Positions 22,956 through 42,448 of a stretch of 48,795 nt of DNA are shown piece after piece. The notes below the pieces were generated by a model. That model saw only the letters and a list, made by a program, of their open reading frames with translations. It searched no databases and was not told the DNA's origin. Origin of the DNA: an uncultured archaeon. GTDB taxonomy: Archaea > Aenigmatarchaeota > Aenigmatarchaeia > QMZP01. Numbering within the stretch: the stretch's first letter is position 1; every line of letters starts with the position of its first letter. A program made the position numbers and the translations under genes. Location: assembly GCA_964372825.1 (NCBI GenBank), contig CAYJTA010000001.1, positions 1-48,795 on the forward strand, read 5' to 3'.

Positions 22956-23663
22956 CTAAAATATCTTGAACTTGGAAGGCTCTATCCCCTTCTCCACAAT
23001 CACGAACTTGGCCTCTTTCCCTTCCTCCATAAACCTGTGCTTTGTTATTGTGGCCTTCCTTTCCGACAGCTTCTCAGTCTTCTCAAGGAAGATTATGGCC
23101 TTGCTCCAGTATTTCAGAACATCGCCTCCAATCATTTCATTCTCCCCTGTCTCCCAGTTCTTGAACGTGTGCGCAGTCATTATAACCGGTATCTTCCTCT
23201 GCCTGGCCATATTGGACAGCACGGAAAGCTGCCTGCTGAGCTCCCTGTTAGCTTCAAGAAGCTCCTCCCTGCTCTGCCTGCCTTTTTCAGGATCATTCCC
23301 GAGCCTGTACAGGGAAACAATGGAGTCAACAATTATGAGATCCGCATTTTTTTCCTGCAGCTGCTGTATGCATTTCCTCTGCTCTTCAAAAGTCTTTGGC
23401 TCCACAATTTCAATATTCTTGACAGCAGAATCGAAATCAATATCATTTCCTTTGCATATCTGCTGGAGCCTTTCCACGCTAAAGCCGCCCTCTGTATCAA
23501 TATAAACCGCTTTTCCTTTATTCTTCACACACTCCAAGACAGCGAGCAAACACAGATTAGTTTTCCCTGTCCCGGGCCCCCCATAGAAATTGGTCAAAGC
23601 CCCGCTCTCGAGGCCGCTGCTGCCGAACATGCCGCCTACGGGTTCAGGGAACGTAATGGCCAT
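22956..23663 (-). CDS. radB: RadB-type RecA-family recombination protein (no N-terminal HhH domain)
   Basis: 235 aa. Motifs GLESGALTNFYGGPGTGKTNLCL (Walker A), AVYIDTEGGFSVERL, and LIIVDSIVSLYR (Walker B region). Size is typical of RadB rather than RadA. Confidence 0.75.
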   Translation of the reverse strand: MAITFPEPVGGMFGSSGLESGALTNFYGGPGTGKTNLCLLAVLECVKNKGKAVYIDTEGGFSVERLQQICKGNDIDFDSAVKNIEIVEPKTFEEQRKCIQQLQEKNADLIIVDSIVSLYRLGNDPEKGRQSREELLEANRELSRQLSVLSNMARQRKIPVIMTAHTFKNWETGENEMIGGDVLKYWSKAIIFLEKTEKLSERKATITKHRFMEEGKEAKFVIVEKGIEPSKFKIF

Positions 23664-25546: not shown

Positions 25547-26557
25547 CTAACCAGCCTCATACAGGCATTCTTCAAGATCTCTCAACAAGCCTGGATGCAA
25601 GTGCCTCATTGTCCAGCCCCTCACCCTGTCCCTCACAGGCCTCAGTTTCCTCTTGATGCCTTCTGGTAGAAATGTGAGCGTTGAGTATGGGGGGTCCGAA
25701 CCCATTCTGTAGAGAAGATATCTCACTGACTGCGTTGGCTCTGGCCTCCCGAAATGTTTCTTGAATACCCTGTCTTTCTGCTCCCTTGCAAATTTGGCAT
25801 CTACAGGTTCTCCTGTAATTGATTTCGGATGGCATCTATAGAATACGGAAACAAAAGACCCATAGGACGGCTTATAGCCGCCTTCCAGCGCAGCTTCCAT
25901 GCTGGATAGCGACATATCCCTGTCTTCCCCATGGGAAAGATTGGGATCGAACACGCCTTCCTGTCCGTATTTTGCAGCCACAAAGTCTTTCAGATACCTC
26001 AAAAAGCCTGTTCCCCACATTATCGTGTGATGATTGAAAAGCCGATGATTCCCAACAGACGATAGGTATTTTTCCCCATTCCCGCCTTTCCACCCCCTGA
26101 TCCCTATCACTTCTCCTGTCTCATCAAGGAAAGCCATATCAGTGTGCACAAAGCCGGTCCCGTTGCCCATTTTCCATATCCGCTTCTGAACGCTGTCTTT
26201 CGGCAGCAAATCATCCGAATGAAGAAACGCAATGGCATATAAATCGCTTGCTTCAGACCTTGTGAACACATCGCCACTGCCTGCGAGACAACAGTCTATG
26301 CCGAGATTCAGAGCATTGGAAGCCGTTCTCAGGTCTGAAGGAGACTTATCCCTTCTGATGTAACGTATTCTGGAATCATGGTATTCTCGAAGAAAGCCCT
26401 CCACATCAGAACTTGAGCCATCATCGACAACAACATGCACAAGGTTCAGAGCATCTGTCCTTTGCCTGATAAAACTCCTCACGGTATGATCAAACAGCTT
26501 CAGCCTCTCATTTTGCGGAGTTGCATAAACGGGAGATATGACAGCCGCTGTTGCCAT
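25547..26557 (-). CDS. family 2 glycosyltransferase
   Basis: AVISPVYATPQNERLKLFDHTVRSFIRQ, VVVDDGSSSD, and FLHSDDLL (DxD-like) fit the GT-A fold pattern. Confidence 0.7.
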   Translation of the reverse strand: MATAAVISPVYATPQNERLKLFDHTVRSFIRQRTDALNLVHVVVDDGSSSDVEGFLREYHDSRIRYIRRDKSPSDLRTASNALNLGIDCCLAGSGDVFTRSEASDLYAIAFLHSDDLLPKDSVQKRIWKMGNGTGFVHTDMAFLDETGEVIGIRGWKGGNGEKYLSSVGNHRLFNHHTIMWGTGFLRYLKDFVAAKYGQEGVFDPNLSHGEDRDMSLSSMEAALEGGYKPSYGSFVSVFYRCHPKSITGEPVDAKFAREQKDRVFKKHFGRPEPTQSVRYLLYRMGSDPPYSTLTFLPEGIKRKLRPVRDRVRGWTMRHLHPGLLRDLEECLYEAG

Positions 26558-26603
26558 ATAGAGGGTAAGATTATAAGCTATTTAAAGCCGGATGCATGTG
26601 GTA

Positions 26604-27323
26604 TCACCACTTCCCTCCGGCCCCTCCACCTCCGCTTCCGCCTCCGCCAAACCCGCCGAAGCCTCCCCTCCCGCCTCCGCCTTTCCCTGTCCCAAAATAC
26701 CCCCATTTCCTGCCGCTTTCAGACTCGCTCGTTTTTTTTGCGGCCTTGGCTATGCCTATGATAACTACAAACACGATTAAAAAGAAAACCAGAATCAGTA
26801 AAATATCGCCCTCCTCTATCTCTTTTTCATCCTCTTTATCGCCATTTCCTTCAATCTCGGCCGAAATCCCCTTCACAGCGCAGAATATGCCTTTTCCATA
26901 TTCTCCTGTCCTGAAGTTCTCCGTGAAGCAGTTTCTGCCTATCCTGCCGGCTTTCGCATCATTCATGCTCCCCTCGAGGCCATATCCGACCTCTATCCTC
27001 CATTGCCTGTCATCAACCGCTATAAGGATCAGAAGGCCGTTGTCCACCCCCTTCTTCCCTATGCCCCACTTCTGGAACAGCCTTTCGGCATATGAGTTTA
27101 TCTCATCCCCCTCAAGGCTCTTTACCGTCACGACAGCAATCTCTATGCTCCTGTTTTCCTCCAGCCTTGCCAGATAATCCTCAATCTGGGCCCTGCTGTA
27201 CTGGTCTATGACCCCTGCGAAATCATTCACATAGCCTTGCGGATTCGGGGTATCCAGCGCAGACTCTGCCTGGGATATGATAAGAATAAGGAATAAAGGA
27301 ATCAGCAAAATTTTCTTTGACAT
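26604..27323 (-). CDS. TPM-domain (YgcG-like) membrane protein with a Gly-rich C-terminal tail
   Basis: The track ORF extends to 27410. The internal ATG at 27323 gives the signal peptide MSKKILLIPLFLILIISQAES and removes the overlap with lemA. Motifs GYVNDFAGVI, IEIAVVTVKSLEG, NGLLILIAVDDRQWRIEVGYGLEG. A TM follows, then GGGGRGGFGGFGGGGSGGGG. Confidence 0.8.
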   Translation of the reverse strand: MSKKILLIPLFLILIISQAESALDTPNPQGYVNDFAGVIDQYSRAQIEDYLARLEENRSIEIAVVTVKSLEGDEINSYAERLFQKWGIGKKGVDNGLLILIAVDDRQWRIEVGYGLEGSMNDAKAGRIGRNCFTENFRTGEYGKGIFCAVKGISAEIEGNGDKEDEKEIEEGDILLILVFFLIVFVVIIGIAKAAKKTSESESGRKWGYFGTGKGGGGRGGFGGFGGGGSGGGGAGGKW

Positions 27324-27345
27324 ATGTCTATCTCCCCCTGCGCTG

Positions 27346-27915
27346 TCAAGGGAACTCGACTTGAGGCGCCTTTTCAGCCCCCTTCTCGGCCTCGAAATAT
27401 TTCCTGTCAATGAGTCCCATCTGCCCGGCTATGATGGATGTCGGTATCGAGTGTATGGCAGTGTTGTACTTCCTCACATCATCATTGTACCTCATCCTCT
27501 CGACAGATATCCTGTTCTCTGTCCCTGCAAGCTCGTCCTGCAGGCTGAGGAAATTCTGGCTGGCCTTCAGCTCGGGGTAATTCTCTGCAACAAGCAGCAG
27601 CCTCGATATGGTCCTTTCCACATCTCCCGCAGCCGCTATCTTCTCATCCTGTGTCGGGGCCGTCTGCCACCTTGACCTGATCTCTGTTATCTCCTTCAGC
27701 ACCCTCTCTTCGAAACTGGCATAGCCTTTGACAACATTCACGAGGTTCGGGATAAGATCAACCCTCCTCTGGTACTGCGCCTCCACATTGGCCCACTGCC
27801 TGTCCACAGCCTGGTTGAGGCCGACAAGGTAATTGTACGTGGAGACATACCATAACACAGTAATCAGCACAATTGCTGCTACGCCTCCGAGAGCATATTT
27901 GGCCGTGTTGTCCAT
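27346..27915 (-). CDS. lemA: LemA family protein
   Basis: 189 aa with one N-terminal TM. YNYLVGLNQAVDRQWANVEAQYQRRVDLIPNLVNVVKGYASFE is the LemA signature. The pairing with a TPM gene is the usual arrangement. Confidence 0.85.
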   Translation of the reverse strand: MDNTAKYALGGVAAIVLITVLWYVSTYNYLVGLNQAVDRQWANVEAQYQRRVDLIPNLVNVVKGYASFEERVLKEITEIRSRWQTAPTQDEKIAAAGDVERTISRLLLVAENYPELKASQNFLSLQDELAGTENRISVERMRYNDDVRKYNTAIHSIPTSIIAGQMGLIDRKYFEAEKGAEKAPQVEFP

Positions 27916-27960
27916 CGTAATTATTGGTTTTCTCCGCTATTTAAATCGCTCTTGGCGATA

Positions 27961-28686
27961 TCATATCAGCTCATCGCTGAAGTCTTCCCATGACATCTCC
28001 AGCTTCCTGAAATACTTGTTGATCTTCCTGACAAGAACCCTGGCTAAGCCCACCTTGTCAACTTCTTTCAGGCTCATATCGGCTGTTTCCCTTGCGAGCA
28101 AAGTCCCCTGAGGCTCAATCAGTTTTGACTTGTCCAGAGGGCTGCCGGAAAAATCAGGATTGTTTTCAGGGCAGACGATAAGCGAGCCCTTGGGCTGGTT
28201 GTAGTAATGAGAACCAAGGCCGTCATAAAGCAGCGCATGGAATAATCTTCTGTCTCCCCGGGAATAGGAAAAGAGATCTATTGTCGCTACGGGGACTTCA
28301 TACACTGCTTCCTCCCCTCCGACTGTGCCTGTTTCAACCTCCTTGAATGCGTATATTATCGATTGCCTAGGATGATATCCCAGAGAAATTGCAATGATAT
28401 CAAAGGCCGCCGTCAACTCCTGCGATTTCGCAGGATAATGTATGGAATCCACTTTTTTCTGCGTTCTCAAAAATCCGGAAAGGCCGCTCAGCATGATAGG
28501 CACAGAAAGCCTTCCAGCCTGCCCTTTAAGTCCGCTGCTCCTGTATGCATTTTCTATGCCTTTGGAAGCATCAACCCTTTCAAGGCAGCCTATTTTTTCC
28601 TCAACCCCTATGCCTTCATACCCATCATTCGCCCTGTCTATACTGAATTTCATTCTGGATTTTGGATAGAAGGTATTTATATCCAA
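27961..28686 (-). CDS. hypothetical cytoplasmic protein
   Basis: 241-aa ORF in the same long minus-strand gene string. No motif recognised. Confidence 0.55.
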   Translation of the reverse strand: MDINTFYPKSRMKFSIDRANDGYEGIGVEEKIGCLERVDASKGIENAYRSSGLKGQAGRLSVPIMLSGLSGFLRTQKKVDSIHYPAKSQELTAAFDIIAISLGYHPRQSIIYAFKEVETGTVGGEEAVYEVPVATIDLFSYSRGDRRLFHALLYDGLGSHYYNQPKGSLIVCPENNPDFSGSPLDKSKLIEPQGTLLARETADMSLKEVDKVGLARVLVRKINKYFRKLEMSWEDFSDELI

Positions 28687-28717
28687 AGCAGGCCTGTTAC
28701 CGGTGAACTGCGGCAGC

Positions 28718-29665
28718 CTATTTCTTCAGCTTCCTGAGGATCTCCTCGCATCTCTCCAGATGGTAGCTTGCCATCAAATCCAGGTCTCTGGTGGCAAAAT
28801 CGTTCGCAAGCCTGTACTCCTCCTCCAGCTCGCTTCTGTCAACGCCATACACTGTTGGCATGGCCTTTTCTATTTTCGAAAGCCTGCCTCTGACATCTCC
28901 CGGAAAGCCATCCTGCTTTGGTGCTTTCATCCTGCCAGCGCCTCTGAGAATTCTTTTAATTGTTTCCGTAATACCGCCTGCTTTTTGCTTGCTCTCAATC
29001 TCGCTTTTTTCGCTCACCTTTTTCCCGGACATCTCTTTCCCGGCTTCGCCTTTCCATTCGCCTGGCATTGTGCCCTTTCCAAGATTCATATCTTTCTGTT
29101 TCTTTCCTTCAATCGCCTTCGGCCGCCTAAGCAGCGCCTTGAAGCTGAAGGCCGCCCCGAAAAGCCTGCCCATCTCCTGCCTGGCTTCTGTCCCCTTTGC
29201 CCTTGCTGTGAGCAGCCTGTCCTGCTCCTTCACCATTATGCCCCTGAATGTCTTCTCGTCTATCTTCCTCTTGAAATACTGGATCTCCGCGTTTTTCCTG
29301 CTGGCTATTATGGCCTGCTCCTCAGCCAGCAGCTGATGAAGGCTTCTCCTCAGCCTTGTGTAGGGGATTGCGAATGCTGTCATGAAGTAGCTGCCAAACG
29401 AAACAACAACAATGACAGCCACTATGGCGTTGAGGTTCGAATAGACAAATTTCAGGAAAGCCAGGCCCACGCTTTCCAGAGAGGCCTTTATGAACTCATC
29501 TTCAGTGGCGCTCATCAGCTTTTCAAGTGACTGCAGGTCATCAGATGATATGGCCTTTTCCGCCTTCTCAAGGGCTTTTTCTATCCTGCCTATCTTCTCC
29601 TTCAGGCTTTCGACGTCTATGCCCAGGTTTTCAAGTTCTATAGTAGCATTTTTCAGATCTGCCAA
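28718..29665 (-). CDS. coiled-coil membrane protein, function unknown; start uncertain (TTG)
   Basis: 315 aa. Helical N-terminal region, a central TM pair (VGLAFLKFVYSNLNAIVAVIVVVSFGSYFMTAFAI), and a Lys/Glu-rich C-terminal half. Confidence 0.55.
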   Translation of the reverse strand: MADLKNATIELENLGIDVESLKEKIGRIEKALEKAEKAISSDDLQSLEKLMSATEDEFIKASLESVGLAFLKFVYSNLNAIVAVIVVVSFGSYFMTAFAIPYTRLRRSLHQLLAEEQAIIASRKNAEIQYFKRKIDEKTFRGIMVKEQDRLLTARAKGTEARQEMGRLFGAAFSFKALLRRPKAIEGKKQKDMNLGKGTMPGEWKGEAGKEMSGKKVSEKSEIESKQKAGGITETIKRILRGAGRMKAPKQDGFPGDVRGRLSKIEKAMPTVYGVDRSELEEEYRLANDFATRDLDLMASYHLERCEEILRKLKK

Positions 29666-29755
29666 GGCCTTGGGATATTTGTTCCTTATAGTCTCCGCGA
29701 GCCTGTTGGGAAGGACTTTTATGAGTATGGAGGCTGTTTACTCTGCCTGACAATC

Positions 29756-32700
29756 CTAGTCGGAAAAAGTCACAACGGAAACATAATCGCAGGGTCTGGC
29801 AGTCAGAGGCACATGGATCTTTATCTGCATCGCTTTTTCAGTGCCCTTTATCCCTTCTATCTGCAATGAGCCCTTTTCAGGGAAGAACCTGCAGCATTCG
29901 CTCTGCACCCCCACTTCCACATCAAGCCTCTCGTTTCCAGTATTCCTTACCTTCCCGCTGATGAATGCATCCATCCCCTGCCTGATTTCGAAGGACAACT
30001 GATAGAGCAGAAGCTCAAAGGCCGCGATTTTTTCTGCCTCCCTCTGTATCTTCCTGCACGCACGCAGCATGATGTCGCATTCCAGGCCGCCTTCGCAGTC
30101 CCTGTCGCTTGCACATGCCTCGCCTTCCCTGCTCAGGTTCTTGGCTGCCCCTATTGCGCTGCTTGATGTCCCGCCGCCTACTGAAGCGCCAGAGGAGCCT
30201 GAAGAGGATGACTGCTGGGTTGTCGGCACCACAAAATCTGTCCCTGAATTCTTGAAAGAATCAGTGCCTGATGCAAAGATGCTGAATGACCCGCTGGCAT
30301 CAGCTGCCGATAACGATTGGTTATTTGAGTATATTCCGTCGCTCTCTTTGCTGAGAAGAGCAAACTGGTTATTGCACTTGTTGGTCTGGCACTGGACAAT
30401 CACAGAGGCGTCAGCTACAGGCTCTGATCTTATGTTCAGCACCCTCACCCTCATATTTATCTGCTGGCCTGAGCTTACAAATTCGTTTGCTATCGGGCTT
30501 ATTATCTGGGTTGTAAGGGATTTGTAGACCCCGAATGCCGCTGTTGCGACCCCCCTGTTTCCGCTCCTGCTGGCATTGGCATAGACCACATACGTCGCAC
30601 TGCTGCCTGAATCGGCATCGGGCTTGTCAGTTGCCTCTATCCTGTAGTATGCCGAACCCTGAACAGAGCCGTTGGCCACAGTGGCATTTGCCGCAGACCT
30701 GTCGAGGATGATGCTGAGGTTGAAGCCTGTCACATTCTCATTGTTGGCATTTCTGACGATCACATTGATGCTGACATTCTCGCCCTTGTTGTACGAGCTG
30801 TATGGAGTTGACACGTTTACAGTGTACACATCTGTCACATTGAAGCTGCCTGCGGATGATGAGTTTATGTTTCCCGACATGTCGGAAGCAAAAACAATGA
30901 ACGAGAAATTGCCGGTCTCATTCGCATTTGTGAAATCAAGAGAATAGAGACTGTTCCTTATCTGCGAGGCGGAATGGTTTTGCCTCCCTCCCGAAGGGTG
31001 CGTCACCTGCACCGTGACAGAATTTATTATCGAATTGTCCGTCACATTGGCGGATATGGTATTGGTTTCGTACAGGTTAAGGGTGCTGTAGGCCTTGGAG
31101 ACGGAGTTTATCTGCGGCCTCTGGCTGTCGCTGGCTATGACAATCACGAGCATGCTACTGTTTGCGGGCTGGTGGTAGGTGGAGTTGACAGTGAAGTTGA
31201 CATACGCCTGGCCTGCAGCCGTGCCGTTTACTGTGAAGCTTACCTTCCTCGGTTTTGTGCCTTCAAACGTCACATTGCCGATGTTCCTGAAGTTTTCCGT
31301 AAGATTAATCACGCCTGATGATGAAGAATATGCCGATACATTTATCAGATCCCCATTGCTCGGGGTAAGGAGCATGCTTATGTTGGCAGGCTGGCCAAGA
31401 GGTATGGATACCTGGCTGCCATTGCCGTCAGCAGGCTCTATGCTTATGTTTCCTAGCGGCACAGAAAAGGTTAAGTTTTTCGTGACAGTGATCCTCATTA
31501 TGGCTGTAACAGAGACTGTGTAATTTCCTGACCTTGTGACGTTCCTGTATGCTCCTGAGTACTGCAGACTGCTGCCTGAAACACGTGAGAGAGATACAAT
31601 CTCAGTAACATTCCCCGGCTTCATAATCAGCGCCCTCACGCTCTGCACGGAGCTAGCATTCCCGCTTATGTTGGCCTGTATTGCAAGGGTATTGTTCACG
31701 GGCAGGCTTGAATTGGAAAGGGATACATTGAACTGGAGCTCCTTTACCTCCAGCTGCATGGTCGTATTCAGCGATCCGATGTTTCCCTGGCTGTCGTTCG
31801 CATATTCTGCAAGTATCGTGTAGTTCCTGCTGTCCTGGGTCTGGTTTAACACAAGCTCCCATGTCCCTGATTGGAGGCTGCCGGTGAGTAAGGAGAGGCT
31901 CATGTTGGTGAGGTTGCCATAGCTGTCGTTCACCATCACCCATGCGGCTGTCACATTGGCATTGTCTGTAGCAGCAAGAGTGACTGAAGATGACTCATTG
32001 ACATTGACAATATTCAGCGAGATGTCAGCCGAGGATATCTCAGGCCTCTCGGCGTCAAGGGCAGTCACGATCACGCTATTGCTGGCATTGAACATGCCTG
32101 AGAGGCCATCTATGGCCGTTGCAGTGAAGTTGAAGATGCCAGCTGCCGGCAGGGATATGTTCCAGCTTGCTGTCCTGCTGCTATTGGATGGTATGCTTTC
32201 AATGATCGTATAGTTGTTTCCTGCATCCGAAGAGAATGATGCATTGACATAGTATGCCTTTCCGCTTCTCCCCTCTTTGGCATCATTAGTGACAGTGACG
32301 CTGAAGTTGAAGTAACCGCTCTGGTTGAATACGCATGCTCCAAGGCCATTGCAGAGCATCGAGGTTATGTTAAGGAGAGGGGAGATGGTTGTGGTATAAT
32401 CAGAAATGTTTGTCTCTCCCGCGCCTATTGTCCATGAAGAGTTTGTATCCTGAACTTTTGCCGATGCGCTGGTGTTTGCTGTTATATTGATTGAGGAGAC
32501 AGCAGTCAGAGGGGTTGCAGTTATCAGGTTTCCTGCATAAATCATGGAGCATGCTGAGCCGCATTCATACCGGCTTATATTGGAATAGGAATCAGGCAGG
32601 AAGAGGTTAAAACTTTTATTGGCCATGCTCCTGTTGAAATTGATGGATAGCAGGATGGAGCCGTTTGTGGCCGAATCTATTGTTTTTGATCCGTTTATTG

Positions 32701-35700
32701 TCGCCGACAGCGTCGAATTGACAACAAGGAAGCTCCTGTTTAGCTGGGTCTCATTGAGGCCCGCTGCATTCCCCATGCTGTCATTCGCGAACAGCATCGT
32801 GATTGTGTGCCTTCCTGTCGCATTTGTATTCGCAAATGCCAGGGAAAAGTTTGCTTCTCCTGAATAAGGAGACATGCTGAAGTTCCTCCTCATGCCGGAA
32901 TAGTTCAGTTCCACGATGGCGTGGCTGATGCCGCCTGCGTCTGACAAATTGGCCATTATCCTGATGCTCTCGAAGGGATGCACCCTGGCATCGCTGAAAA
33001 TCGCATCTGTCACATTGAATGATATGTTGCCTGATGTCGGAGGGGCGTTGTCAAGGGTATAAGCCGCATACGTCGAAATTGTATTTCCTGCGGAATCAGT
33101 TGCATATAATGTGACATTTCTTTGCCCATTGCCTGAAAAGGCCGGACTGAAACCGATCCCGCTCGGGAAGCTTGTGTTTGTCCCGTTTCCGTTGTCGAAA
33201 CGAAGGGAAGCCATGCCTGAGGCAGAGTCGGAAACTGCCACAGTAAGCTGTGTGGAGGATGTTATCCTGCTGCCGTTTGCCGGGCTCGTGGAAATGAATG
33301 ATGGCTTAGTGAGGTCAACAGAAAAATTCCTGCCTGCTGAGGCTGTCAGTCCGACAGAGTCATTGGCCTGCACTGTCACCTCGCACTTTCCCATGCCCTC
33401 TGTCTGGCAGTAGGAGATATTTGCGAGGAAAGGCTGGCCGCATGGAATTGTTATCCACCCTGATTCTGAGCTTCCTGCAATTCTGGACATGCAGGATAAA
33501 TTGCTGGTATCTGCAGCGGAGAAGGTCACATTAAAACTGTTTGACTGCCAGCTGTTGGCGGCAGGAGATGCGATTGATACAGAAGGCTGTGTGTTGTCAG
33601 TGCTCAGGTATATACTGCTTGTATTGCTGTTTCCAGCTTCATCTGTTGCTGAAACCTCTATCATGCAGTTCGAAGCATTGTTGTCGGAGCAGAGCTGGGT
33701 GCTGAAGCTGATGTTGGACGCGCAGCTCGTGTTGAATGGGCCATTCGTTCCTGACTGGGCGAAGCTCCAGCTGCAGGAGCCCAGCCTGACGGCATCTGAG
33801 GCAGAGAAGCTCACATTTATCGCGCGTGTCTGTAGGCTAGCATTGGAAGGGGATGTTATGGAAACAGATGGCTTCTGCCTGTCTATGTATGCCCAGCTCC
33901 TGTCTGTCGCCGATGCTGTCGTGTTGTCTATTGAAGTGAAATTGACAGAATAGTTTCCATCCGCAAGGCTCTGGATGTTTATTGTATTTGTAAATGAACA
34001 TGTAGTTGAGCTGATGCCCGCTACCGAATAATTGGCTATCAATGTCGAATTGTAAATATAGTAGCTGCACTCCGTCAGTATCCTGCCTATTACTGCGGAG
34101 CCTCTCATGTCGAGGCTGAAATTGCCGCCTAATATCTTTTCTCTGGGAAAGACTATCGCAGCAGTGGGCTTCTGATTGTCGACTGAAAATGTAGCGTTCC
34201 TGCTTGCCGCATTGCTCGCATTGTCAGAGGAGTTTACCACAAGGACAAATGTTGCGACAGTATACGGATTGCTGTCGAACGTCGAGTTCCAGTTAGGATA
34301 TGTGAGGTTGCCGCTGGAAATCGTCTGGCTCATGTTGCTTGCGTTGAGGATGCTGTATGTCGCATTGGTTGCTCCTGCCCCCAAGTCGGTTATGTTGGCC
34401 CTTATCTCGATTGCGCCTGACCTGCTGCTCCCATCGGGAGGGTTGAGAATCGTTATTGAAGGCGCCTTCCTGTCTATCCTTATCAGGCTGCTGTTTTTAG
34501 TGCTCTCCAGATTGCCCACGCTGTCATTGCTCCTGTACCGGACATATATCTGGCACTCCTCACCCTGGCCGCATGCTGCTGTTGCCACTGCTCCTGCCGT
34601 TGCCGGCATGCACTCAGGCTGGGTTGTCCTGTAAGTGCAATATAATGTGACACTGCATGCAGTCACGTTGTCTGTGCAGTTCAGCCTTACAGCCTGGTCG
34701 CTTGTTTTCCAGTCAGGGGATGTATAATTGTCTGAAGTGTTTGGCGGCGTCACATCCAGCGTGTAAAAAAGGAGGGTATTGTTCGCATTTCCTGCGCTGT
34801 CATTCGCATATACTGTGAGGTTCCTGAGGCCTTCCCCTGTGAACCCCGGGCTGAATGAGATATTGTTTGTTATGCTGAAATTCGTGCCGTTGCCGTTATT
34901 GGCAAGAGCATTAGCGCCCGAAACGGCATCAGAAAAGGATATGGTGGCTGTTGTACTGCCTGTTATGTTGGAGTTGTTTGCAGGGGAGAATGAAGAGAAA
35001 GAGGGCGCTGTATTGTCAGCAATAAAGGCAAAAAGCGTCGTGTTTGTATTTCCTGCGGAATCATTCGCATACGCCCTCAGAGTCCTGCTGCCTTCGGCCG
35101 TATAGCCAGGATTGAAAGAGACATTGTCTGCAAAGCTCGTATTTGTTCCATTGCCGTTATCAAACCAGCTGGCGGCTATGCCTGAAAATGATTCTATTAA
35201 ATCTATCCTTATGTTCCTTGCAAAGTTTATATAGGAGCCGTTGGCAGGATCCATCAGATTGAATGCAGGGGCCGTGTTGTCGACGGCAAACGAATAAAGG
35301 GTCCAGTTCTGGTTGCCCGAATTGTCCATGAAGCTTGCATTCAGCGTCTTGTTCCCTTCGCTCGCATAACCTGGATTGAATGCCGCGCCGCTGGAAAAGC
35401 CTGTTTTTGTCCCATTGCCGTTGTCGAATGTGTGGCCTGAGCTTGCAACGCCTGAAAGGCTGTCGTTCAGCGCTATAGTGAGGTTTGCCGAAGAGGTTAT
35501 GAATGAGTTGTTGGCCCTCGATATCGATACTATATAGGGAGGCTGGCGGTCGATGGTAATCGTATCACTCAGTGTGGTTGTCTGCACATTCCCTGCTGTA
35601 TCTTTCACCTGCACATAAATTGTTTTCAGGCCATCGGAATTCGTGCAGCCATAACTTGAATTTGTGAAATTGAAATCAGAATATGTTGTAGTCCATGCTA

Positions 35701-37012
35701 CCCAGTTTGCCCAGTTTGAGTTGTCGCATGAGAAGCGCATGTAATCAGGGTTGCCATCCGATGCGTTCTGGTCAGCTATATAGAGTGCAGGCTTCTCTTT
35801 GTTCGTATATGTTGGCCCGGGGTCAGAATCGCTTTCTATGGTTATTCTTGAAGCAGTAGGAGCTGTCCTGTCCACGCTAACCGTCACATTGTCGAACTTC
35901 CCCCAGAAGCCGTCAAAGTCCTTGCAGTGCACGGCTATTGTATGGTTCCCCTCTGAAAGGCCTGCAGTATTTATAGTTATATTTGCAATCTCTGTGGCGC
36001 TGCTGAATGACCCGTCTTTTGCCCCAAGGGCTGTTCCTGAGCCGAAAGAGCCTGTTGTGTCCACAAAATACTCCGCTGCCGTTATGTTCGAATACCTCTG
36101 GGTTGTGTTGCATGTGACGTTAAGCACAGTCGTGCTGTTTGTCAGATTTGGCGTCAGCCTTGCCCCCTTAGAATCTGGAGACACGAGGTAACCTAGAACC
36201 TGCTTCATCAGGCTTCGTCGCGTGGAGTTTCCGCTGCTCCTTTCAAAGGCAAAGCCGAAGAGTAAGGTTTTGTATGATGCCGTCTTTGCTCTTATGGCGG
36301 CATATCCGCCCTCAAAGGCGTCGCTACAGATCCAGTAATATAGGCCAGAAATTAAATAAAGGCTGCAGTATTTGAATACATTGGCTGAAAGCGAATCCTT
36401 TCCGTCTATAATGTCCGGATTGTCAGCACCGGCGTTAAGGATGTTTATCGTGAAGTCATCGCCTATGGGGTCTTTTTTTGTTGTGTCGGCATCCCTCACG
36501 TAATCATCATAAAAGGCATCATCTGCTATGTATTCAGCATGGAGGTAGCTCTCAAAGAAGCTGTCCACATGGCCTATGTCAGACGCTATGTCCTGGCCTG
36601 TGAGGAACAGCTTCCCGCCATTGTCCAGGTACCACTGGAGGTTCTGCCTGTCTGCTGCTGTCAGGGTCGGATAGTTGAAATCCCCGCCTACCGCTCCTGT
36701 ATCGAAGGCCGTAAACCAAATAACTATGTCATAGTCCCTCATCAGGCTGGTGCAGCTTGCCGTTGTCGTATTGTATCCCGGGCCGTCGCCTGTCTGAGAC
36801 GAAACCACGCACTTGTCGAAAGAATAGCCGTTCCCCTGTATGGCCCATGCATAATATTTCTCAAGCTGGGAGTTTGTGCATTCCACCCCTCCCGGACAGA
36901 AATGGGCATCCTCGACAAGAAGTATTTTCGCCTTGGGGGAGTCAGAGTATACTATATTCGATAGAAGGGCAAAGGCAAAGGCCAAAATAAGGAGAAATCT
37001 GAATAAGCGCAT
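29756..37012 (-). CDS. giant secreted surface protein/adhesin candidate (2418 aa) with a Sec signal peptide, many Ig-like repeat modules and very dense N-glycosylation sequons; no C-terminal anchor
   Basis: Uninterrupted 7.26-kb ORF. Signal peptide is MRLFRFLLILAFAFALLSNIVYS. Repeated modules of the type TAPxF..SPANxSxIT....I..SDxxSG......NGNGTN.S......F.PG...EG.R.L..YA.DSAGN. The motif GLKTIYVQVKDTAGN is typical of Ig-like surface repeats. By eye I counted about 35 N-x-S/T sites in the first 760 aa. Confidence 0.9.
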   Translation of the reverse strand: MRLFRFLLILAFAFALLSNIVYSDSPKAKILLVEDAHFCPGGVECTNSQLEKYYAWAIQGNGYSFDKCVVSSQTGDGPGYNTTTASCTSLMRDYDIVIWFTAFDTGAVGGDFNYPTLTAADRQNLQWYLDNGGKLFLTGQDIASDIGHVDSFFESYLHAEYIADDAFYDDYVRDADTTKKDPIGDDFTINILNAGADNPDIIDGKDSLSANVFKYCSLYLISGLYYWICSDAFEGGYAAIRAKTASYKTLLFGFAFERSSGNSTRRSLMKQVLGYLVSPDSKGARLTPNLTNSTTVLNVTCNTTQRYSNITAAEYFVDTTGSFGSGTALGAKDGSFSSATEIANITINTAGLSEGNHTIAVHCKDFDGFWGKFDNVTVSVDRTAPTASRITIESDSDPGPTYTNKEKPALYIADQNASDGNPDYMRFSCDNSNWANWVAWTTTYSDFNFTNSSYGCTNSDGLKTIYVQVKDTAGNVQTTTLSDTITIDRQPPYIVSISRANNSFITSSANLTIALNDSLSGVASSGHTFDNGNGTKTGFSSGAAFNPGYASEGNKTLNASFMDNSGNQNWTLYSFAVDNTAPAFNLMDPANGSYINFARNIRIDLIESFSGIAASWFDNGNGTNTSFADNVSFNPGYTAEGSRTLRAYANDSAGNTNTTLFAFIADNTAPSFSSFSPANNSNITGSTTATISFSDAVSGANALANNGNGTNFSITNNISFSPGFTGEGLRNLTVYANDSAGNANNTLLFYTLDVTPPNTSDNYTSPDWKTSDQAVRLNCTDNVTACSVTLYCTYRTTQPECMPATAGAVATAACGQGEECQIYVRYRSNDSVGNLESTKNSSLIRIDRKAPSITILNPPDGSSRSGAIEIRANITDLGAGATNATYSILNASNMSQTISSGNLTYPNWNSTFDSNPYTVATFVLVVNSSDNASNAASRNATFSVDNQKPTAAIVFPREKILGGNFSLDMRGSAVIGRILTECSYYIYNSTLIANYSVAGISSTTCSFTNTINIQSLADGNYSVNFTSIDNTTASATDRSWAYIDRQKPSVSITSPSNASLQTRAINVSFSASDAVRLGSCSWSFAQSGTNGPFNTSCASNISFSTQLCSDNNASNCMIEVSATDEAGNSNTSSIYLSTDNTQPSVSIASPAANSWQSNSFNVTFSAADTSNLSCMSRIAGSSESGWITIPCGQPFLANISYCQTEGMGKCEVTVQANDSVGLTASAGRNFSVDLTKPSFISTSPANGSRITSSTQLTVAVSDSASGMASLRFDNGNGTNTSFPSGIGFSPAFSGNGQRNVTLYATDSAGNTISTYAAYTLDNAPPTSGNISFNVTDAIFSDARVHPFESIRIMANLSDAGGISHAIVELNYSGMRRNFSMSPYSGEANFSLAFANTNATGRHTITMLFANDSMGNAAGLNETQLNRSFLVVNSTLSATINGSKTIDSATNGSILLSINFNRSMANKSFNLFLPDSYSNISRYECGSACSMIYAGNLITATPLTAVSSINITANTSASAKVQDTNSSWTIGAGETNISDYTTTISPLLNITSMLCNGLGACVFNQSGYFNFSVTVTNDAKEGRSGKAYYVNASFSSDAGNNYTIIESIPSNSSRTASWNISLPAAGIFNFTATAIDGLSGMFNASNSVIVTALDAERPEISSADISLNIVNVNESSSVTLAATDNANVTAAWVMVNDSYGNLTNMSLSLLTGSLQSGTWELVLNQTQDSRNYTILAEYANDSQGNIGSLNTTMQLEVKELQFNVSLSNSSLPVNNTLAIQANISGNASSVQSVRALIMKPGNVTEIVSLSRVSGSSLQYSGAYRNVTRSGNYTVSVTAIMRITVTKNLTFSVPLGNISIEPADGNGSQVSIPLGQPANISMLLTPSNGDLINVSAYSSSSGVINLTENFRNIGNVTFEGTKPRKVSFTVNGTAAGQAYVNFTVNSTYHQPANSSMLVIVIASDSQRPQINSVSKAYSTLNLYETNTISANVTDNSIINSVTVQVTHPSGGRQNHSASQIRNSLYSLDFTNANETGNFSFIVFASDMSGNINSSSAGSFNVTDVYTVNVSTPYSSYNKGENVSINVIVRNANNENVTGFNLSIILDRSAANATVANGSVQGSAYYRIEATDKPDADSGSSATYVVYANASRSGNRGVATAAFGVYKSLTTQIISPIANEFVSSGQQINMRVRVLNIRSEPVADASVIVQCQTNKCNNQFALLSKESDGIYSNNQSLSAADASGSFSIFASGTDSFKNSGTDFVVPTTQQSSSSGSSGASVGGGTSSSAIGAAKNLSREGEACASDRDCEGGLECDIMLRACRKIQREAEKIAAFELLLYQLSFEIRQGMDAFISGKVRNTGNERLDVEVGVQSECCRFFPEKGSLQIEGIKGTEKAMQIKIHVPLTARPCDYVSVVTFSD
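34742..35551 (-). repeat. three tandem modules of about 90 aa inside the giant protein (aa about 488-757); a fourth related copy lies further downstream
   Basis: The three modules QPPYIVSISRANNSFITSSANLTIALNDSLSGV...DNGNGTKT...NPGYASEGNKTL...DNSGN, TAPAFNLMDPANGSYIN...DNGNGTNTSF...NPGYTAEGSRTLRAYANDSAGN and TAPSFSSFSPANNSNITG...NNGNGTNFS...SPGFTGEGLRNLTVYANDSAGN align. The later copy is KPSFISTSPANGSRITS...DNGNGTNTSF...YATDSAGN. Confidence 0.8.
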
Positions 37013-37105
37013 ATTATAATGTTTGTTTTGTGATTAATAATTAATTTTGTTACTAACCTAATAATATAGGGCAGAATGGGCTACGTAAAAATGCCAAAAG
37101 CGGGC

Positions 37106-38656
37106 CTATTTCTTCATCCCCGCCTTCCTCATTACCGCCTCAGGGTCCATATAATATTCCGAGACAAGCCTGCCCACATCGTTTATGTCATTTATGTTTT
37201 TCTTCGCCATCCAGTTCAGCATCCCGACCTTCTGCCGCTGGTCGGCCACAAAATCGTCATACTCCATGCCCGCATAGAGCTTGAGCTCGTCCATCACCCT
37301 TGCCGACTTGTTCAGGGAAAGCACCTGGTCTGTTGTGGGGATCCACCTGAAGACAGGGTTTAGTTCTGCTACAGCATTGTCCACATCAGAAATGATCTCC
37401 ACTATCTCCAGCACCCTCCTTATCTCCCTTCTCCTGTCCCTGTGCATGACAGCCACGAGGTCAAGGGCTCCAAGCATGCTCACAGGGATGCTGATGGGCG
37501 GGTTTGTAAGCCTCTTGACAGCTTCCTGCGCAGTATTGGCATGAAGGGTAGAATATACAGAGTGGCCTGTGTGTATCGCTTCAAACAGCACTTCTGCTTC
37601 CCTGCTCCTCCTTATCTCCCCTACAAGAATTCTGTCAGGCCTCATCCTCAGGCTGTTCACCATGAGGTCAAGCATGGTCACCTGCCCTTTGCCCTCCGAA
37701 TTTGGCGATCTTGTCGTCAGCGGCACCCAGTGGAGGAACTCAGGGAGCTGGAGCTCCCTTGTGTCTTCTATGCTGACTATCCTGTGAGAAGGGGAGATGA
37801 AATTCGTCAGCACGTTCAGCAGGCTTGTTTTTCCGCTTGCAGTCCCCCCGACTATGAGGACATTCATCTCATATTGTATGGCCAGCCACAGGAATGCGGC
37901 AGCCTCAGACGTTATCGTCTTGGACAATATGAAGTCCGTTATTGTCCATGGCTTCCTTGCGAAGCGTCTTATGGTCAGGGTATGGCCCCGCGAGCTTATG
38001 GGGAACAGAGTTGCATTTGTCCTATCGCCTGTTGTAAGATAGGCATCCATGAGGGGGCTGAGGTTCGTTATCTGCACCCCTATCTTCCTCCCTATGCTTG
38101 CTGCATAGTTGTAGATCTCCGCTTCAGTCTGTATGATTATATTCGTCTTGAGCCAGCCCAGCTTCCTGTGGTAAACCCAGACAGGCTCCTTGCAGCCGTT
38201 GACAACAATCTCTTCGAGGTTCTCGTCCTTCAGCAGTATCTCCAGCGGCCCCAGGCCAAGGGACTTGTTGACCAGTATTTCAGCCAGTATCTTGGCATCC
38301 GTCTCCTCCATGGAGCCGAAGGCTTCCCTTATCAGCTCCAGGCTCCTCTTGAAGAATGATTCCTTGAGCCTTTCGGCCTGCTCCTGCGTAAGCGTCTCCT
38401 CTGTGCTTATGGCTATCTCCACTATCAGCCTCTCCCTTATGGAATCCAGGACAGCCTCTGTTGCAGCCTCCACCTTCGGGAATATGACCTTATAAGTAGG
38501 GACAAACTCGGCAGGGTACTTCAGGATGCTGACTTTTGCCGACAGTTCATCCAGGCTGACATAGTATTCCCTCAGCGGCTTTCCGGCATCCATAATAATA
38601 TTTGGCCGCTGCCCTTTATAACTTGGGTTTTGAACCATGTTCCGGGATGCCGGCAT
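37106..38656 (-). CDS. type II/IV secretion-family ATPase (archaeal FlaI/ArlI- or PilB-like pilus/archaellum assembly ATPase)
   Basis: 516 aa. Motifs NVLIVGGTASGKTSLLNVL (Walker A), RIVSIEDTRELQL, RMRPDRILVGEIR (Walker B/Asp box), and TGHSVYSTLHA (His box). Confidence 0.88.
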   Translation of the reverse strand: MPASRNMVQNPSYKGQRPNIIMDAGKPLREYYVSLDELSAKVSILKYPAEFVPTYKVIFPKVEAATEAVLDSIRERLIVEIAISTEETLTQEQAERLKESFFKRSLELIREAFGSMEETDAKILAEILVNKSLGLGPLEILLKDENLEEIVVNGCKEPVWVYHRKLGWLKTNIIIQTEAEIYNYAASIGRKIGVQITNLSPLMDAYLTTGDRTNATLFPISSRGHTLTIRRFARKPWTITDFILSKTITSEAAAFLWLAIQYEMNVLIVGGTASGKTSLLNVLTNFISPSHRIVSIEDTRELQLPEFLHWVPLTTRSPNSEGKGQVTMLDLMVNSLRMRPDRILVGEIRRSREAEVLFEAIHTGHSVYSTLHANTAQEAVKRLTNPPISIPVSMLGALDLVAVMHRDRRREIRRVLEIVEIISDVDNAVAELNPVFRWIPTTDQVLSLNKSARVMDELKLYAGMEYDDFVADQRQKVGMLNWMAKKNINDINDVGRLVSEYYMDPEAVMRKAGMKK

Positions 38657-38862: not shown

Positions 38863-40119
38863 ATGCGGAAGCCGGATGTAAGAAATAAGGGAGATATGCT
38901 CAGCTCTATAAGATCCTTCCTCTCCGCCATAGGGAATCAGCCAGGAAAAACATCATCAGCATCTTCCAGTGATAAACTCCTGAAGAAAAAGGCGGCCGGC
39001 AAAAGGATCAGAAAGAATCTGAAGCATTCTGTAGCGAGGCGGGTCATAGCCAAAAAGACAGCGCCTATGGGAAAGCATGCCATAAGCATAGTAAAGGCTA
39101 CACACCTCAGGATTCCCCGGCCTGCGGCTTCCAGGCAGCTCCTTGAGAATCTTGCCCCCAAAGTATCCATCAAGCCCGCATCCCATGCCCTAAAGCATGC
39201 AGAACCGGCCGGAAAAAAGAACCGGAAGCCTGCAATCAAACCCGCTCCCAAGCTGCTTATCCGGAAAATAGCTCCCAAGTCTGCATTCCACACCTCAAAA
39301 CATTTAGGGGCTGGTGGAAAAAACCAGAAGCCTGAGCCCTCATTTCCCCAACATATTGTCCGCAGGCAATCCCTGAACCGCCTTGCCTCAAAGATCAAAG
39401 TTAAGCTCCAGTCTTACGCCCAAAAGCATGCAGAGCCTGTCGAAAAGAAGGAAGACAAAAAAGCGGTCCAGAAATCTGCCATATCCGCAGTCCAGCAATT
39501 CCTGAAGCAGTCTGCTCCAAAAATTGCCGCCAAACCTCCATTCAGAGCCCAAAAGCATATAGAGCCCCTTGAAAATACAAAACAGCTTCAGACGTCTTCT
39601 ATAGCTCTGGCAGCCAAACAGATCCTGAAGCAGCTTATCCCAAAGATCGGCATCAGGCCTGCATCTCATCGCCGGGAGACCGCAGAACTTTCCGGAAAAA
39701 TGAACCAGAAGCCTGCCATGCCTCCTGCCCCAAAGCAGCCGCCGCCCAAAAAAGAGCCGCCGAAGCAGGCTGGAGTAATATACAAGCCGGCCAAGGAATT
39801 GCCGGTTGACAAGAGGGAGTGGCCCATCAGCCTCGATGGAAAAGGCCAGAAACAGGCAGAAAAACCCAAGCTGCCGCAGTTCGACATGCCCATTTTCCTC
39901 GAGACAAATGTGGACAGGCTTTATGCCATCATACAGGCCAAAGGATCAATGGACATGGGCGAAGCTGCGAGACAGTTCAAGGTAACTGAGCAGAAAGTTG
40001 AGGAATGGTGCAGGATGCTTGAAGACCATGGCATGATAGAGATCCATTACCCTCCTTTCGGCAAGCCTCAGATAAGGCTGAAGCAGGCAGAGAAAAAGTC
40101 AGAGCCGCAGGCCTCATGA
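38863..40119 (+). CDS. Lys-rich repeat protein with a C-terminal winged-helix domain, divergent from the ATPase gene
   Basis: 418 aa. Five repeats of about 40 aa fit (L/F)L(K/E)x(L/S)APKI..KP.....KH.EP. They are followed by a Pro/Lys linker and NVDRLYAIIQAKGSMDMGEAARQFKVTEQKVEEWCRMLEDHGMIEIHYPPFG (HTH plus wing). Confidence 0.7.
   Translation: MRKPDVRNKGDMLSSIRSFLSAIGNQPGKTSSASSSDKLLKKKAAGKRIRKNLKHSVARRVIAKKTAPMGKHAISIVKATHLRIPRPAASRQLLENLAPKVSIKPASHALKHAEPAGKKNRKPAIKPAPKLLIRKIAPKSAFHTSKHLGAGGKNQKPEPSFPQHIVRRQSLNRLASKIKVKLQSYAQKHAEPVEKKEDKKAVQKSAISAVQQFLKQSAPKIAAKPPFRAQKHIEPLENTKQLQTSSIALAAKQILKQLIPKIGIRPASHRRETAELSGKMNQKPAMPPAPKQPPPKKEPPKQAGVIYKPAKELPVDKREWPISLDGKGQKQAEKPKLPQFDMPIFLETNVDRLYAIIQAKGSMDMGEAARQFKVTEQKVEEWCRMLEDHGMIEIHYPPFGKPQIRLKQAEKKSEPQAS
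39136..39738 (+). repeat. five tandem degenerate repeats of about 40 aa within the 418-aa protein
   Basis: Repeat starts at aa 93 (LLENLAPKV), 131 (LLIRKIAPK), 170 (SLNRLASKI), 213 (FLKQSAPKI) and 254 (ILKQLIPKI). Each is followed by a KH(A/I/L)EP-type motif. Confidence 0.65.
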
Positions 40120-40175
40120 TGATAATCAGATGCGCCCTCTCAAAGAATATTTCTCCGGATTTATGAGTTTCTGCA

Positions 40176-41414
40176 TCAAGGCTCCAGCAGCTCGCTGAGA
40201 TTATATCTTGCTGCCGTGCCATTGTCAAGCCTCAGCCATGCCTGCATCCCCCTGACAGCCTTTCCCGGATATGATACTGTGGAAAAATAAAGATCATCCA
40301 CCATGCTCTTCCCGGTATCCACTGACAGCCCCAGCGCCTGTAGCTCAGGGATGTTCACGAAGCTCTCAAGGCCGTTGGAGCTCTGGTTTGTTATGTTGTC
40401 CTCCAGCCTTTTCAGGAAGCTCATGCCATTGCCGGCAAAACCGAAATAGAGGCCGTTGTCGACCGCACCTGTGACAGGAAGGTGCCATGCAGACTTGGTC
40501 TTGTTGTCAAGGTAGAGCTGTGAATAATTTGCCAGCTTCAGGGTCTGGTTGACTATGCTTACGGCATTGGGGGCAGACTTTATATAGCAGCCGGTGGCAG
40601 GGGCATCGGCAGTCTCCGAAAGCACGCCTGCGAAGCCCGAAAGGCCTGAAGCATTGTAAACGACAAGTATGCTGCTCCCATTTGCCTGGCTCGCATTGAA
40701 CGATATGGAGCCCGAGCAGCTGGCCCCTGAAGCCGAGGCATTGCCTGAAACAAGCTTCCTTGCCGCATATCCCATGCCATATTTTTTCAGCAGCCTTTTC
40801 GAATAGCCATTGGTGTGAAGAGGATGTAATGGATCCTCGAACTCATATAATGCCACATTGGCAAGGCTCACCCTGCCTCCGGAAAACCTTATCCTTCCCG
40901 TAACATCAGTGACATTAATGCTCACCCTGACAGAGAAATTCATGGTGAAGGGATCCGCTAAAGACACGGAGAGGCTGCTGTAGGAAAGGGCTTTCTGGAG
41001 GTCAACGGTCACGCCAAGGATCCTTGTTCTCCAGTCATCGAGGGTATTGTTCTCCATTATGTAGATGTCGGCTGAGTTCAAAGTGCCGTTAAGCATGAGC
41101 TCCGCAATCCCTCCTGTTGAGCTGTTCAGCCCTTGCCCGTAGATTATCACATTGTTTATCGACGCCAGTATGGCCCTTTTGGCAGCAATCTCCACCGCCC
41201 TGTCAAAATCCTCAGCCATGGATCTCGACAGCTCCCCCACCTGATCCGAGACAACCTTTTCCATGCTTCCGGCGCTCTGTTCCTGCGCGGCAAAAAGGAA
41301 GCCTGAAGCGAAAAGGATGACAGGTATGGCAAGGAAGGCCGCTATTATCGAGTACACCTGCCCGTCCATGGACTTTTGCCCGTCCGTTGCCTTTCGCCTT
41401 CTGCATTCTTTCAT
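40176..41414 (-). CDS. extracytoplasmic sequon-rich protein with an N-terminal TM / possible class III signal peptide
   Basis: 412 aa. Possible start is MDGQ/VYSIIAAFLAIPVILFASGFLF. Many N-x-S/T sites. The start overlaps the upstream stop (TGATGA), which implies translational coupling. Confidence 0.7.
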   Translation of the reverse strand: MKECRRRKATDGQKSMDGQVYSIIAAFLAIPVILFASGFLFAAQEQSAGSMEKVVSDQVGELSRSMAEDFDRAVEIAAKRAILASINNVIIYGQGLNSSTGGIAELMLNGTLNSADIYIMENNTLDDWRTRILGVTVDLQKALSYSSLSVSLADPFTMNFSVRVSINVTDVTGRIRFSGGRVSLANVALYEFEDPLHPLHTNGYSKRLLKKYGMGYAARKLVSGNASASGASCSGSISFNASQANGSSILVVYNASGLSGFAGVLSETADAPATGCYIKSAPNAVSIVNQTLKLANYSQLYLDNKTKSAWHLPVTGAVDNGLYFGFAGNGMSFLKRLEDNITNQSSNGLESFVNIPELQALGLSVDTGKSMVDDLYFSTVSYPGKAVRGMQAWLRLDNGTAARYNLSELLEP

Positions 41415-42355: not shown

Positions 42356-42448
42356 CTCCTCATAATAGAATCTTTCCGTGTGCGGCTTTGACTGGAACTC
42401 GGTGGTGGTATAATTTATTATCCAGTGGGTCGCTCCATCATCGCCTGC

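Follow-up and report, generated by a model that had tools for sequence, protein, structure and literature searches.

The locus analysed here raises the question of how a secretion ATPase of the kind found in archaeal pilus systems came to stand directly before the gene of a giant surface protein, at the head of a string of same-strand genes in which no membrane platform gene is found. It lies on contig CAYJTA010000001.1 (assembly GCA_964372825.1) of an uncultured archaeon of the Aenigmatarchaeota, and the stretch studied, called the window below, is the entire contig of 48,795 bp; the flanking DNA past its ends is not readable directly. A preliminary description had taken the giant as a replacement for the platform gene (FlaJ/PilC/TadC type) and had suggested an unusual surface-assembly or attachment module. 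Comparison with related or metagenomic loci (L001-L120) and with public proteins (P-numbers) leads to a different answer. With a probability that we put at roughly three in four, it shows half of a Tad-like system that has been rearranged, that is, of an archaeal type IV pilus (T4P), whose platform is encoded in trans. Among the grounds for this reading is that the genes upstream of the ATPase in the window have their orthologs in the upstream block of classical loci; the locus is an unusual gene arrangement of a known system and not a new kind of machine.

The best matches of the ATPase are in metagenome-assembled genomes (MAGs) of Aenigmatarchaeota, by which the host is a DPANN archaeon. The contig carries archaeal housekeeping genes (aIF2-gamma, class I LysRS, RadB, ScpA/B), and its GC content stays between 0.47 and 0.53 along the whole length, with no break at the ATPase/giant region. 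Operon structure in the window was read from gene spacing alone, and all the trees mentioned below were built by neighbour joining (NJ), without support values. The main features, as open reading frames (ORFs), are the following:

37106-38656, minus strand: FlaI/GspE/TadA-type ATPase (Pfam T2SSE, E=1e-34; longest ORF 516 aa)
29756-37012, minus strand: giant ectodomain ORF of 2418 aa, with a Sec-type signal peptide and weak Big_3_3/Big_13/Big_7/MG2 matches
28718-29665, minus strand: 315-aa ORF with one transmembrane segment, the detached C-terminus of the giant
27961-28686, minus strand: 241-aa ORF (likely start 28653), no family match
38863-40119, plus strand: 418-aa protein, basic and repeat-rich in its N-terminal part, with a winged-helix-like domain at the C-terminus
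40176-41414, minus strand: 412-aa sequon-rich protein with an N-terminal hydrophobic segment
41414-43267, minus strand: large pilin-like protein in two ORFs (272 and 313 aa), with a class III-type signal peptide (MEIALKG/FVLSLD...) and a hydrophobic helix
43349-43738, plus strand: 129-aa pilin-like protein with a Q-type class III signal peptide (MPLKLQ/AAIEFMI...)

The ATPase, its pilus locus and the platform genes

We assign the ATPase to the FlaI/GspE/TadA (T2SSE) secretion ATPase superfamily, as an archaeal member. It probably starts at 38593, which makes it 495 aa long, in agreement with the public protein P0001 (identical from residue 22 on), and it scores 120 bits against Pfam PF00437 (T2SSE; cutoff 24.9). 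All the motifs are intact, namely Walker A (GTASGKT), the Asp box (IEDTRE), Walker B (RILVGEIR) and the His box (GHSVYSTLHA). The closest solved structure is the A. fulgidus GspE (2OAP, 247 bits over residues 28-511, full length), followed by FlaI (202 bits) and CpaF (185 bits). The secretion-family ATPase proposed at 37106-38656 is thus borne out by its T2SSE domain, its catalytic motifs and its full-length collinearity with archaeal members. The NCBIfam FlaI model NF058587 aligns end to end with only 282 bits, below its 550-bit cutoff, and no archaellum context (archaellins, ArlJ, ArlH, ArlF/G) was detected among the window ORFs by Pfam and NCBIfam scans; an ortholog of the archaellum ATPase ArlI/FlaI is ruled out by these two results. 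The protein is 99.2% identical to that of the sister genome (L111, GCA_053536595.1), which is collinear with window positions 48684-27940 at 86-94% nucleotide identity, and in the NJ tree it groups with the ATPases of L006, L001, L003 and L007, nested among Aenigmatarchaeota ATPases that have adjacent T2SSF (FlaJ/TadC) platform genes.

The ATPase had been described as the head of the gene string; it does not begin the system, as conserved pilus-locus genes lie upstream of it at 38863-43738. A BLAST comparison with 80 species-level loci showed that the 129-aa gene, the 272+313-aa gene, the 412-aa gene and the C-terminal domain of the 418-aa protein form a block shared with Aenigmatarchaeota loci. 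The classical order is seen in L120, whose ATPase is 64% identical to that of the window: a 134-aa pilin-like gene on the opposite strand, then genes of 619 aa, 389 aa, 229 aa and 210 aa (winged-helix), the ATPase, two T2SSF genes and a 128-aa PilA-like pilin (MKKKGQ/AAMEYL...). By gene content, the window ATPase belongs to this conserved Aenigmatarchaeota Tad-like pilus locus. The 412-aa protein, to judge from its homologs upstream of the ATPase in L003, L008, L010, L012, L013, L020, L022, L026, L027, L029, L119 and L120 (31-43% identity), is a conserved component of it. The 272+313-aa gene is uninterrupted in L027 (653 aa, 41% identity), L120 (619 aa, 52%) and L111 (618 aa). The 129-aa protein, the sole window ORF with its signal motif (class III signal peptides were judged by motif alone), gives weak TadE/DUF7266 matches and has homologs in the same position in L001, L012, L013, L027 and L120.

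In the 418-aa protein a winged-helix-like domain is fused to a lysine/proline-rich repeat region of 330 aa. This domain of ~60 aa is encoded directly upstream of the ATPase in ~50 DPANN loci (among L003-L085), where it is C-terminal in Aenigmatarchaeota proteins of ~110-345 aa and N-terminal in Woesearchaeota proteins of ~380 aa; its profile gives weak matches to IclR/Lrp/MarR winged helix-turn-helix (wHTH) structures in the PDB (best IclR, E=3e-4). Since the gene is inverted in the window and in the sister genome, diverging from the ATPase, the latter has an upstream intergenic region of its own there. A PilA-like major pilin is absent from the window, and one follows the T2SSF pair both in L120 and in L117, a second contig of the sister genome; no Pfam match to a prepilin peptidase (FlaK/PibD/TadV) was obtained among the window ORFs scanned, which are a part of those on the contig. 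A further conserved neighbour of the pilus locus, also present in L111, is a HerA/DUF87-type ATPase (45238-46536, plus strand), 60-62% identical to equivalently placed genes in L010, L012, L013 and L027.

The platform was searched for with two hidden Markov models (HMMs) made from 131 TadB/TadC-like proteins found beside the homologous ATPases of relatives. In agreement with the preliminary description, there is no T2SSF gene anywhere on the 48.8-kb contig (best E=0.19, all ORFs of at least 60 aa), and a hydropathy scan concurs: apart from a rhomboid, an EamA transporter and an MFS transporter, it shows no true polytopic membrane protein in the window. The companion statement, that such ATPases are almost always found beside their platform, is correct for a part of the DPANN archaea only. 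Two T2SSF genes directly follow the ATPase in 50 of the 65 species-level loci with at least 3 kb downstream of it; an adjacent T2SSF occurs in 41/42 loci with ATPases less than 57% identical to that of the window (Woesearchaeota, Nanoarchaeia and others), but in 9/23 loci of the Aenigmatarchaeota-type clade. In this phylum-level clade ATPase and platform are thus often uncoupled. Only in the window's own subclade was a gene of 800 aa or more found immediately behind the ATPase. Other Aenigmatarchaeota ATPase clades without an adjacent T2SSF are those of L009, L011, L014, L017, L018, L019, L021, L024 and L025; one such layout, a wHTH gene (~227 aa), the ATPase and a gene of ~120 aa, is conserved, and L008, L020 and L027 retain the upstream pilin block with no platform behind the ATPase.

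The pairing of ATPase and giant, which had been proposed for checking across relatives, recurs in at least seven related lineages from independent assemblies, with ATPases 66-99% identical to that of the window. The giant comes directly after the ATPase in L111/L112 (ATPase identity 99%), L001/L002 (69%), L007 (68-69%), L113 (67%), L003-L005 (66-67%), L119 (66%) and L114, and the spacing is 49-171 nt in the window, L111, L001, L003, L007, L113 and L119. In L113 and L114/L115 a co-directional operon encodes the ATPase (493 aa), the giant (2732 or 2251 aa), a KaiC-like ATPase (240 aa), a stalk protein of 247-257 aa and two T2SSF proteins (295 and 319 aa). In the stalk protein, a miniature paralog of the giant's stalk, a signal peptide is combined with a SECC...HAPL domain, a coiled coil and a transmembrane helix. 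L003 carries the same genes, its T2SSF pair lying 8.2 kb downstream of the ATPase. Because these loci have the T2SSF pair behind the giant, the latter is an insertion between ATPase and platform and not a replacement of the platform. A platform gene in the same cluster, which the preliminary description had itself named as the finding that would speak against it, is therefore present in the relatives L113, L114 and L003.

In the sister genome the T2SSF pair (293 and 316 aa) is on a different contig from the ATPase (JAIYGZ010000108.1, L117), where a PilA-like pilin (MEYLMTYGWAILIV...) and another pilin-like ORF come after it; neither an ATPase nor a KaiC-like gene stands in front of it. In an NJ tree T2SSF-A of L117 groups with the T2SSFs of L113, L114 and L003, mirroring the ATPase clade. 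A further NCBI T2SSF (P0358), encoded on an 8,843-bp contig, falls in the 90%-identity cluster of the L117 T2SSF.

The giant surface protein and its KaiC-like partner

The giant and the "coiled-coil membrane protein" behind it, which had been listed as separate genes, belong to a single gene. The ORFs of 2418 and 315 aa share one reading frame and are parted by an in-frame TAG (29756-29758) and TAA (29738-29740), 6 codons apart, which split an ancestral gene of ~2765 aa; the 315-aa ORF contains the giant's own C-terminal anchor. The sister L111 has AAG and AAA at these positions within an intact ORF of 2761 aa, and the single-gene homologs of L001 (2705 aa) and L003 (1161 aa) align colinearly through the junction. 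A double frameshift is not needed to explain the junction, the in-frame alignment to L001 and L111 being colinear.

The reconstructed protein has a Sec signal peptide, Ig-like repeats, a Ser/Gly linker, a Cys-rich 'SECC...HVPL' stalk domain, a coiled coil, one transmembrane helix and a cytoplasmic tail of ~210 aa with the motif AEIQYFKR-IDEKTFR-IMV-EQDRLL. The membrane-proximal tail is the most conserved region (alignment A1), more so than the ectodomain. The giant contains 142 NxS/T N-glycosylation sequons, compared with 53 +/- 6 in shuffled sequences, in keeping with the surface glycoprotein proposed earlier. Full-length homologs are found in L111 (81% identity), L001 (40%), L113 (39%) and L087 (33%); no match was obtained against PDB sequences. 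A full HMMER search found the tail module in 166 representative clusters (50% identity), nearly always C-terminal and in proteins of up to 6221 aa. In a word-indexed search among proteins the 315-aa tail matched only itself. Neighbouring genes evolve at different rates in this region, with protein identities to the sister of 99.2% for the ATPase and 81% for the giant; the fast divergence of the latter fits diversifying or relaxed selection on a surface protein.

In total, four in-frame stops split three genes of the window that are intact in relatives. In addition to the two in the giant, there is a single TAG (42449-42451) in the 272/313-aa gene, inside a conserved GSGG-x-x-GDDGATH motif (GAG in L111). 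The fourth, a TAA (21599-21601), is in the enolase gene of the contig, between Enolase_N positions 84 and 87. The stops could be recent inactivating mutations or nonsense polymorphism, sites of readthrough, or consensus errors. Recoding of TAG/TAA, by pyrrolysine or another code, was rejected: 15/32 genes stop at one of these codons in the place where their homologs stop, and at three of the sites the sister carries ordinary codons for Lys or Glu.

Across metagenomes, the constant partner of the giant is a KaiC-like ATPase and not the pilus (T2SSE) ATPase. A scan for the tail pattern showed that in 20 of 25 metagenome loci (L086-L110) the giant tail is followed by a single-domain KaiC-family ATPase of ~240 aa, which also accompanies the giant in L001, L003, L113 and L114, sometimes with a mini-stalk paralog of ~250 aa. 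It scores 208 bits against Pfam KaiC, 141 bits against NCBIfam KaiC_arch_3 and 55-58 bits against ArlH/FlaH (cutoff 215). A genuine pilus ATPase with T2SSF within 10 kb of the giant tail was found in one of the 25 metagenome loci (L086). Two other apparent ATPase matches near tail loci were discarded, as a PIN-ATPase-KH protein and an intein-containing protein; near one giant-tail locus, L109 encodes a 1283-aa T2SSE-like ATPase with an intein and a LAGLIDADG endonuclease domain (7789-11640, minus strand). The giant of L087, an end-to-end ortholog of the window's over 2851 aa, is flanked by KaiC-like genes and GluRS, and no pilus genes occur within 10 kb around it. In the literature searched we found no description of a module of giant and KaiC-like ATPase.

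The window itself contains no KaiC-like gene by HMM search, and the sister locus likewise lacks one. The sole match, at 19.5 bits, is RadB (22956-23663), which was discarded as a genuine RadB (202 bits against a 172-bit cutoff). In the window the position after the giant is filled by the 241-aa cytoplasmic protein, whose L111 homolog (231 aa) is 82% identical and which has no Pfam or NCBIfam match. That it might be a degenerate KaiC-like ATPase was rejected, as it has neither a KaiC-like HMM match nor a Walker A motif; an AlphaFold2 single-sequence model (mean predicted local distance difference test score, pLDDT, of 31) was too low in confidence to use.

A probable stepwise rearrangement, rival explanations and known systems

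The split between ATPase and TadC can be traced stepwise. The classical Tad-like operon, as in L120 and many other loci, would be ancestral. In the window's subclade a mobile cassette of two to three genes (giant, KaiC-like ATPase and small stalk paralog) would then have been inserted directly after the ATPase, displacing the platform genes to ~10 kb downstream, as in L113 and L114. Finally, T2SSF pair and major pilin would have moved to another locus in the lineage that holds the window and its sister, and the KaiC-like gene would have gone from the ATPase locus, leaving the 241-aa protein behind the giant instead. The ATPase would still power pilus assembly on a TadB/TadC platform in trans, while the giant would be exported by Sec and held by its own transmembrane helix, as a putative adhesin or S-layer-like coat protein. 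Where a KaiC-like gene is present, the conserved tail is probably the docking site of this regulator.

Some observations weigh against a rearranged pilus system with its platform in trans. In L006, the closest species-level relative (84% ATPase identity), the ATPase stands alone beside FBPase and genes without assigned function, with neither the giant nor pilin genes; because the ATPase is found there in an unrelated context, the locus is fluid and gene loss is possible. That ATPase and giant have stayed strictly adjacent down to 66% ATPase identity could mean that they are linked in function and not by location alone. The ATG of the giant is preceded by an AT-rich, TATA-like stretch, which suggests that the giant may have its own promoter. 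Furthermore, a platform gene in the window's exact organism is backed solely by P0358, for which the attribution to this genome is circumstantial.

If the ATPase had instead lost its platform and worked directly with the giant as a platform-less surface-assembly or attachment module, the lack of T2SSF on the 48.8-kb contig and the immediate adjacency (49-171 nt) kept in several loci would be accounted for, and the conserved cytoplasmic tail of the giant could touch the cytoplasmic ATPase. We regard this as very unlikely, given that T2SSF pairs end the same operon in L113, L114 and L003 and that the sister encodes the cognate pair elsewhere; moreover, the giant has a Sec and not a class III signal peptide, and its end-to-end ortholog in L087 has no pilus ATPase within 10 kb, the constant neighbour being the KaiC-like ATPase. 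The region could also be a decaying remnant with no coherent function, in which platform and KaiC-like genes have been lost and both the giant gene and that of the 620-aa pilin-like protein have become pseudogenes. The in-frame stops in the giant (two) and in the 272/313-aa gene (one), at sense codons in the sister, point in this direction, as do the absence of KaiC-like and stalk genes at the window locus and the isolated ATPase of L006. However, apart from the stops the two genes are intact along 2765 and 618 codons and collinear with the sister, the ATPase has 99.2% identity to that of the sister and has kept all its motifs, and the sister retains an intact giant, the 618-aa gene and the T2SSF pair. 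The housekeeping enolase on the contig is interrupted too, a pattern that points to a consensus or sequencing problem, or to nonsense polymorphism across the genome, rather than to decay of the pilus locus alone; on balance decay seems to us unlikely.

A third possibility starts from the archaellum, whose motor sub-complex consists of ArlI (FlaI), ArlH (FlaH, KaiC-like) and ArlX, a membrane-anchored coiled-coil scaffold. The transmembrane helix and coiled-coil tail of the giant, the KaiC-like ATPase and the FlaI-like ATPase might form a comparable complex coupling the motor to an adhesin. The likeness is a gene trio, contiguous in L001, L113 and L114, for a FlaI-like ATPase, a coiled-coil protein with one transmembrane segment and a single-domain KaiC-like ATPase; the KaiC-like protein has a distant ArlH/FlaH match (55-58 bits) and the giant tail is better conserved than the ectodomain. 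Nevertheless, we find such a complex hardly credible, as the generic archaeal KaiC model gives the KaiC-like protein a far higher score (141 bits) than the ArlH model does, most giant-KaiC modules lie away from pilus ATPases, and at this locus the KaiC-like gene is absent from both the window and its sister. The differences from the archaellum are further marked: the ATPase reaches 282 of the 550 bits set for FlaI and the KaiC-like protein 55 of the 215 set for ArlH, there are no archaellins and no ArlF/G/J, and the third partner is an extracellular giant of 2700 aa and not a small scaffold. By the same analogy, the giant might be a second client of the ATPase, its tail (with the KaiC-like ATPase where present) docking on the FlaI-like hexamer in the manner of ArlI/ArlH/ArlX. 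This idea, which we hold to be quite unlikely, would, if true, place the deployment, tensioning or turnover of a 2700-aa host-attachment protein under the control of ATP hydrolysis, and would explain why the adjacency of ATPase and giant has outlasted that of ATPase and platform.

The rearranged Tad-like system can be set beside loci already described. Makarova, Koonin & Albers (2016, PMC4858521) inferred that archaeal T4P components can act in trans and evolve modularly, and they list KaiC ATPases, S-layer-like proteins and adhesins among the components of such loci. Other DPANN are reported to have Tad clusters that include kaiC genes (Nanohaloarchaeota study, PMC9563170). The Tad-like/archaeal T4P loci of DPANN and Euryarchaeota have a VirB11/TadA-family ATPase and a TadB/TadC module, with pilins in cis or in trans and kaiC nearby (PMC4858521, PMC9563170). 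The present locus differs from these in that the ATPase/TadC module itself is broken by the giant cassette, and in the window lineage platform and major pilin are at a separate locus. Thermoproteales T4P loci of clade 4G include genes for a large S-layer-like protein anchored at its C-terminus and for a large adhesin (PMC4858521). The resemblance, which is one of description and not of sequence, is that a T4P locus encodes a large protein with a signal peptide, multiple cysteines and a transmembrane anchor at the C-terminus; unlike that protein, the giant has a conserved tail of ~210 aa and a KaiC-like partner, and it also occurs away from T4P genes. Very large, fast-evolving surface proteins of reduced-genome, probably host-attached archaea are further known as SPEARE and other DPANN giants (PMC9563170). 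SPEARE proteins are defined by other domains, with no homology shown, whereas the giant family is defined by its C-terminal module of stalk, transmembrane helix and tail and by its KaiC-like neighbour.

As this locus shows, the lack of a platform gene beside an archaeal pilus ATPase on a MAG contig does not allow the conclusion that the machine has no platform. The module of giant and KaiC-like ATPase is the more useful by-product of the analysis, as a candidate for regulated cell-cell attachment in DPANN archaea.

The downstream gene string and other genes of the window

On the minus strand the order ATPase, 2418-aa secreted protein, 315-aa protein, 241-aa protein, LemA, TPM-domain protein and GT2 glycosyltransferase is as the preliminary description gave it, with all the ORFs in place, and the intergenic gaps are indeed short (22-93 nt between the genes of the string). 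The last three are:

27346-27915, minus strand: LemA (Pfam E=8e-57, 191.6 bits)
26604-27410, minus strand: TPM-domain protein, likely start 27323 (TPM_phosphatase E=2e-42, 144.8 bits)
25547-26557, minus strand: GT2 glycosyltransferase (Pfam 31 bits, cutoff 23)

LemA and TPM domains above the Pfam cutoff in adjacent genes confirm the pair. BLAST found no syntenic homologs of LemA, TPM or GT2 in any related ATPase/giant locus examined, and by this comparison the three are best treated as unrelated same-strand neighbours; glycosylation of the giant is a possible role of the GT2 enzyme, as a candidate.

The gene of the EamA-family transporter (43801-44664, plus strand) is missing from the otherwise collinear sister contig L111, where the alignment jumps from 44706 to 43763; the difference is either a recent insertion in the window or a deletion in the sister, and the best homolog of the transporter, in L021, has 61% identity. 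Additional surface proteins may be encoded elsewhere on the contig. A 345-aa ORF (145-1182, plus strand) with a class III-like N-terminus (MARKG/FIHIIEV...) and a small ORF (15524-15973, plus strand) with a pilin-like hydrophobic N-terminus are candidates, while a 1003-aa protein (1969-4980, minus strand), with Pro/Thr-rich linkers and a C-terminal transmembrane helix, has an S-layer-like look. Lastly, a 405-aa secreted protein (12396-13613, minus strand) is a homolog of a 1265-aa protein encoded upstream of the ATPase in L003.

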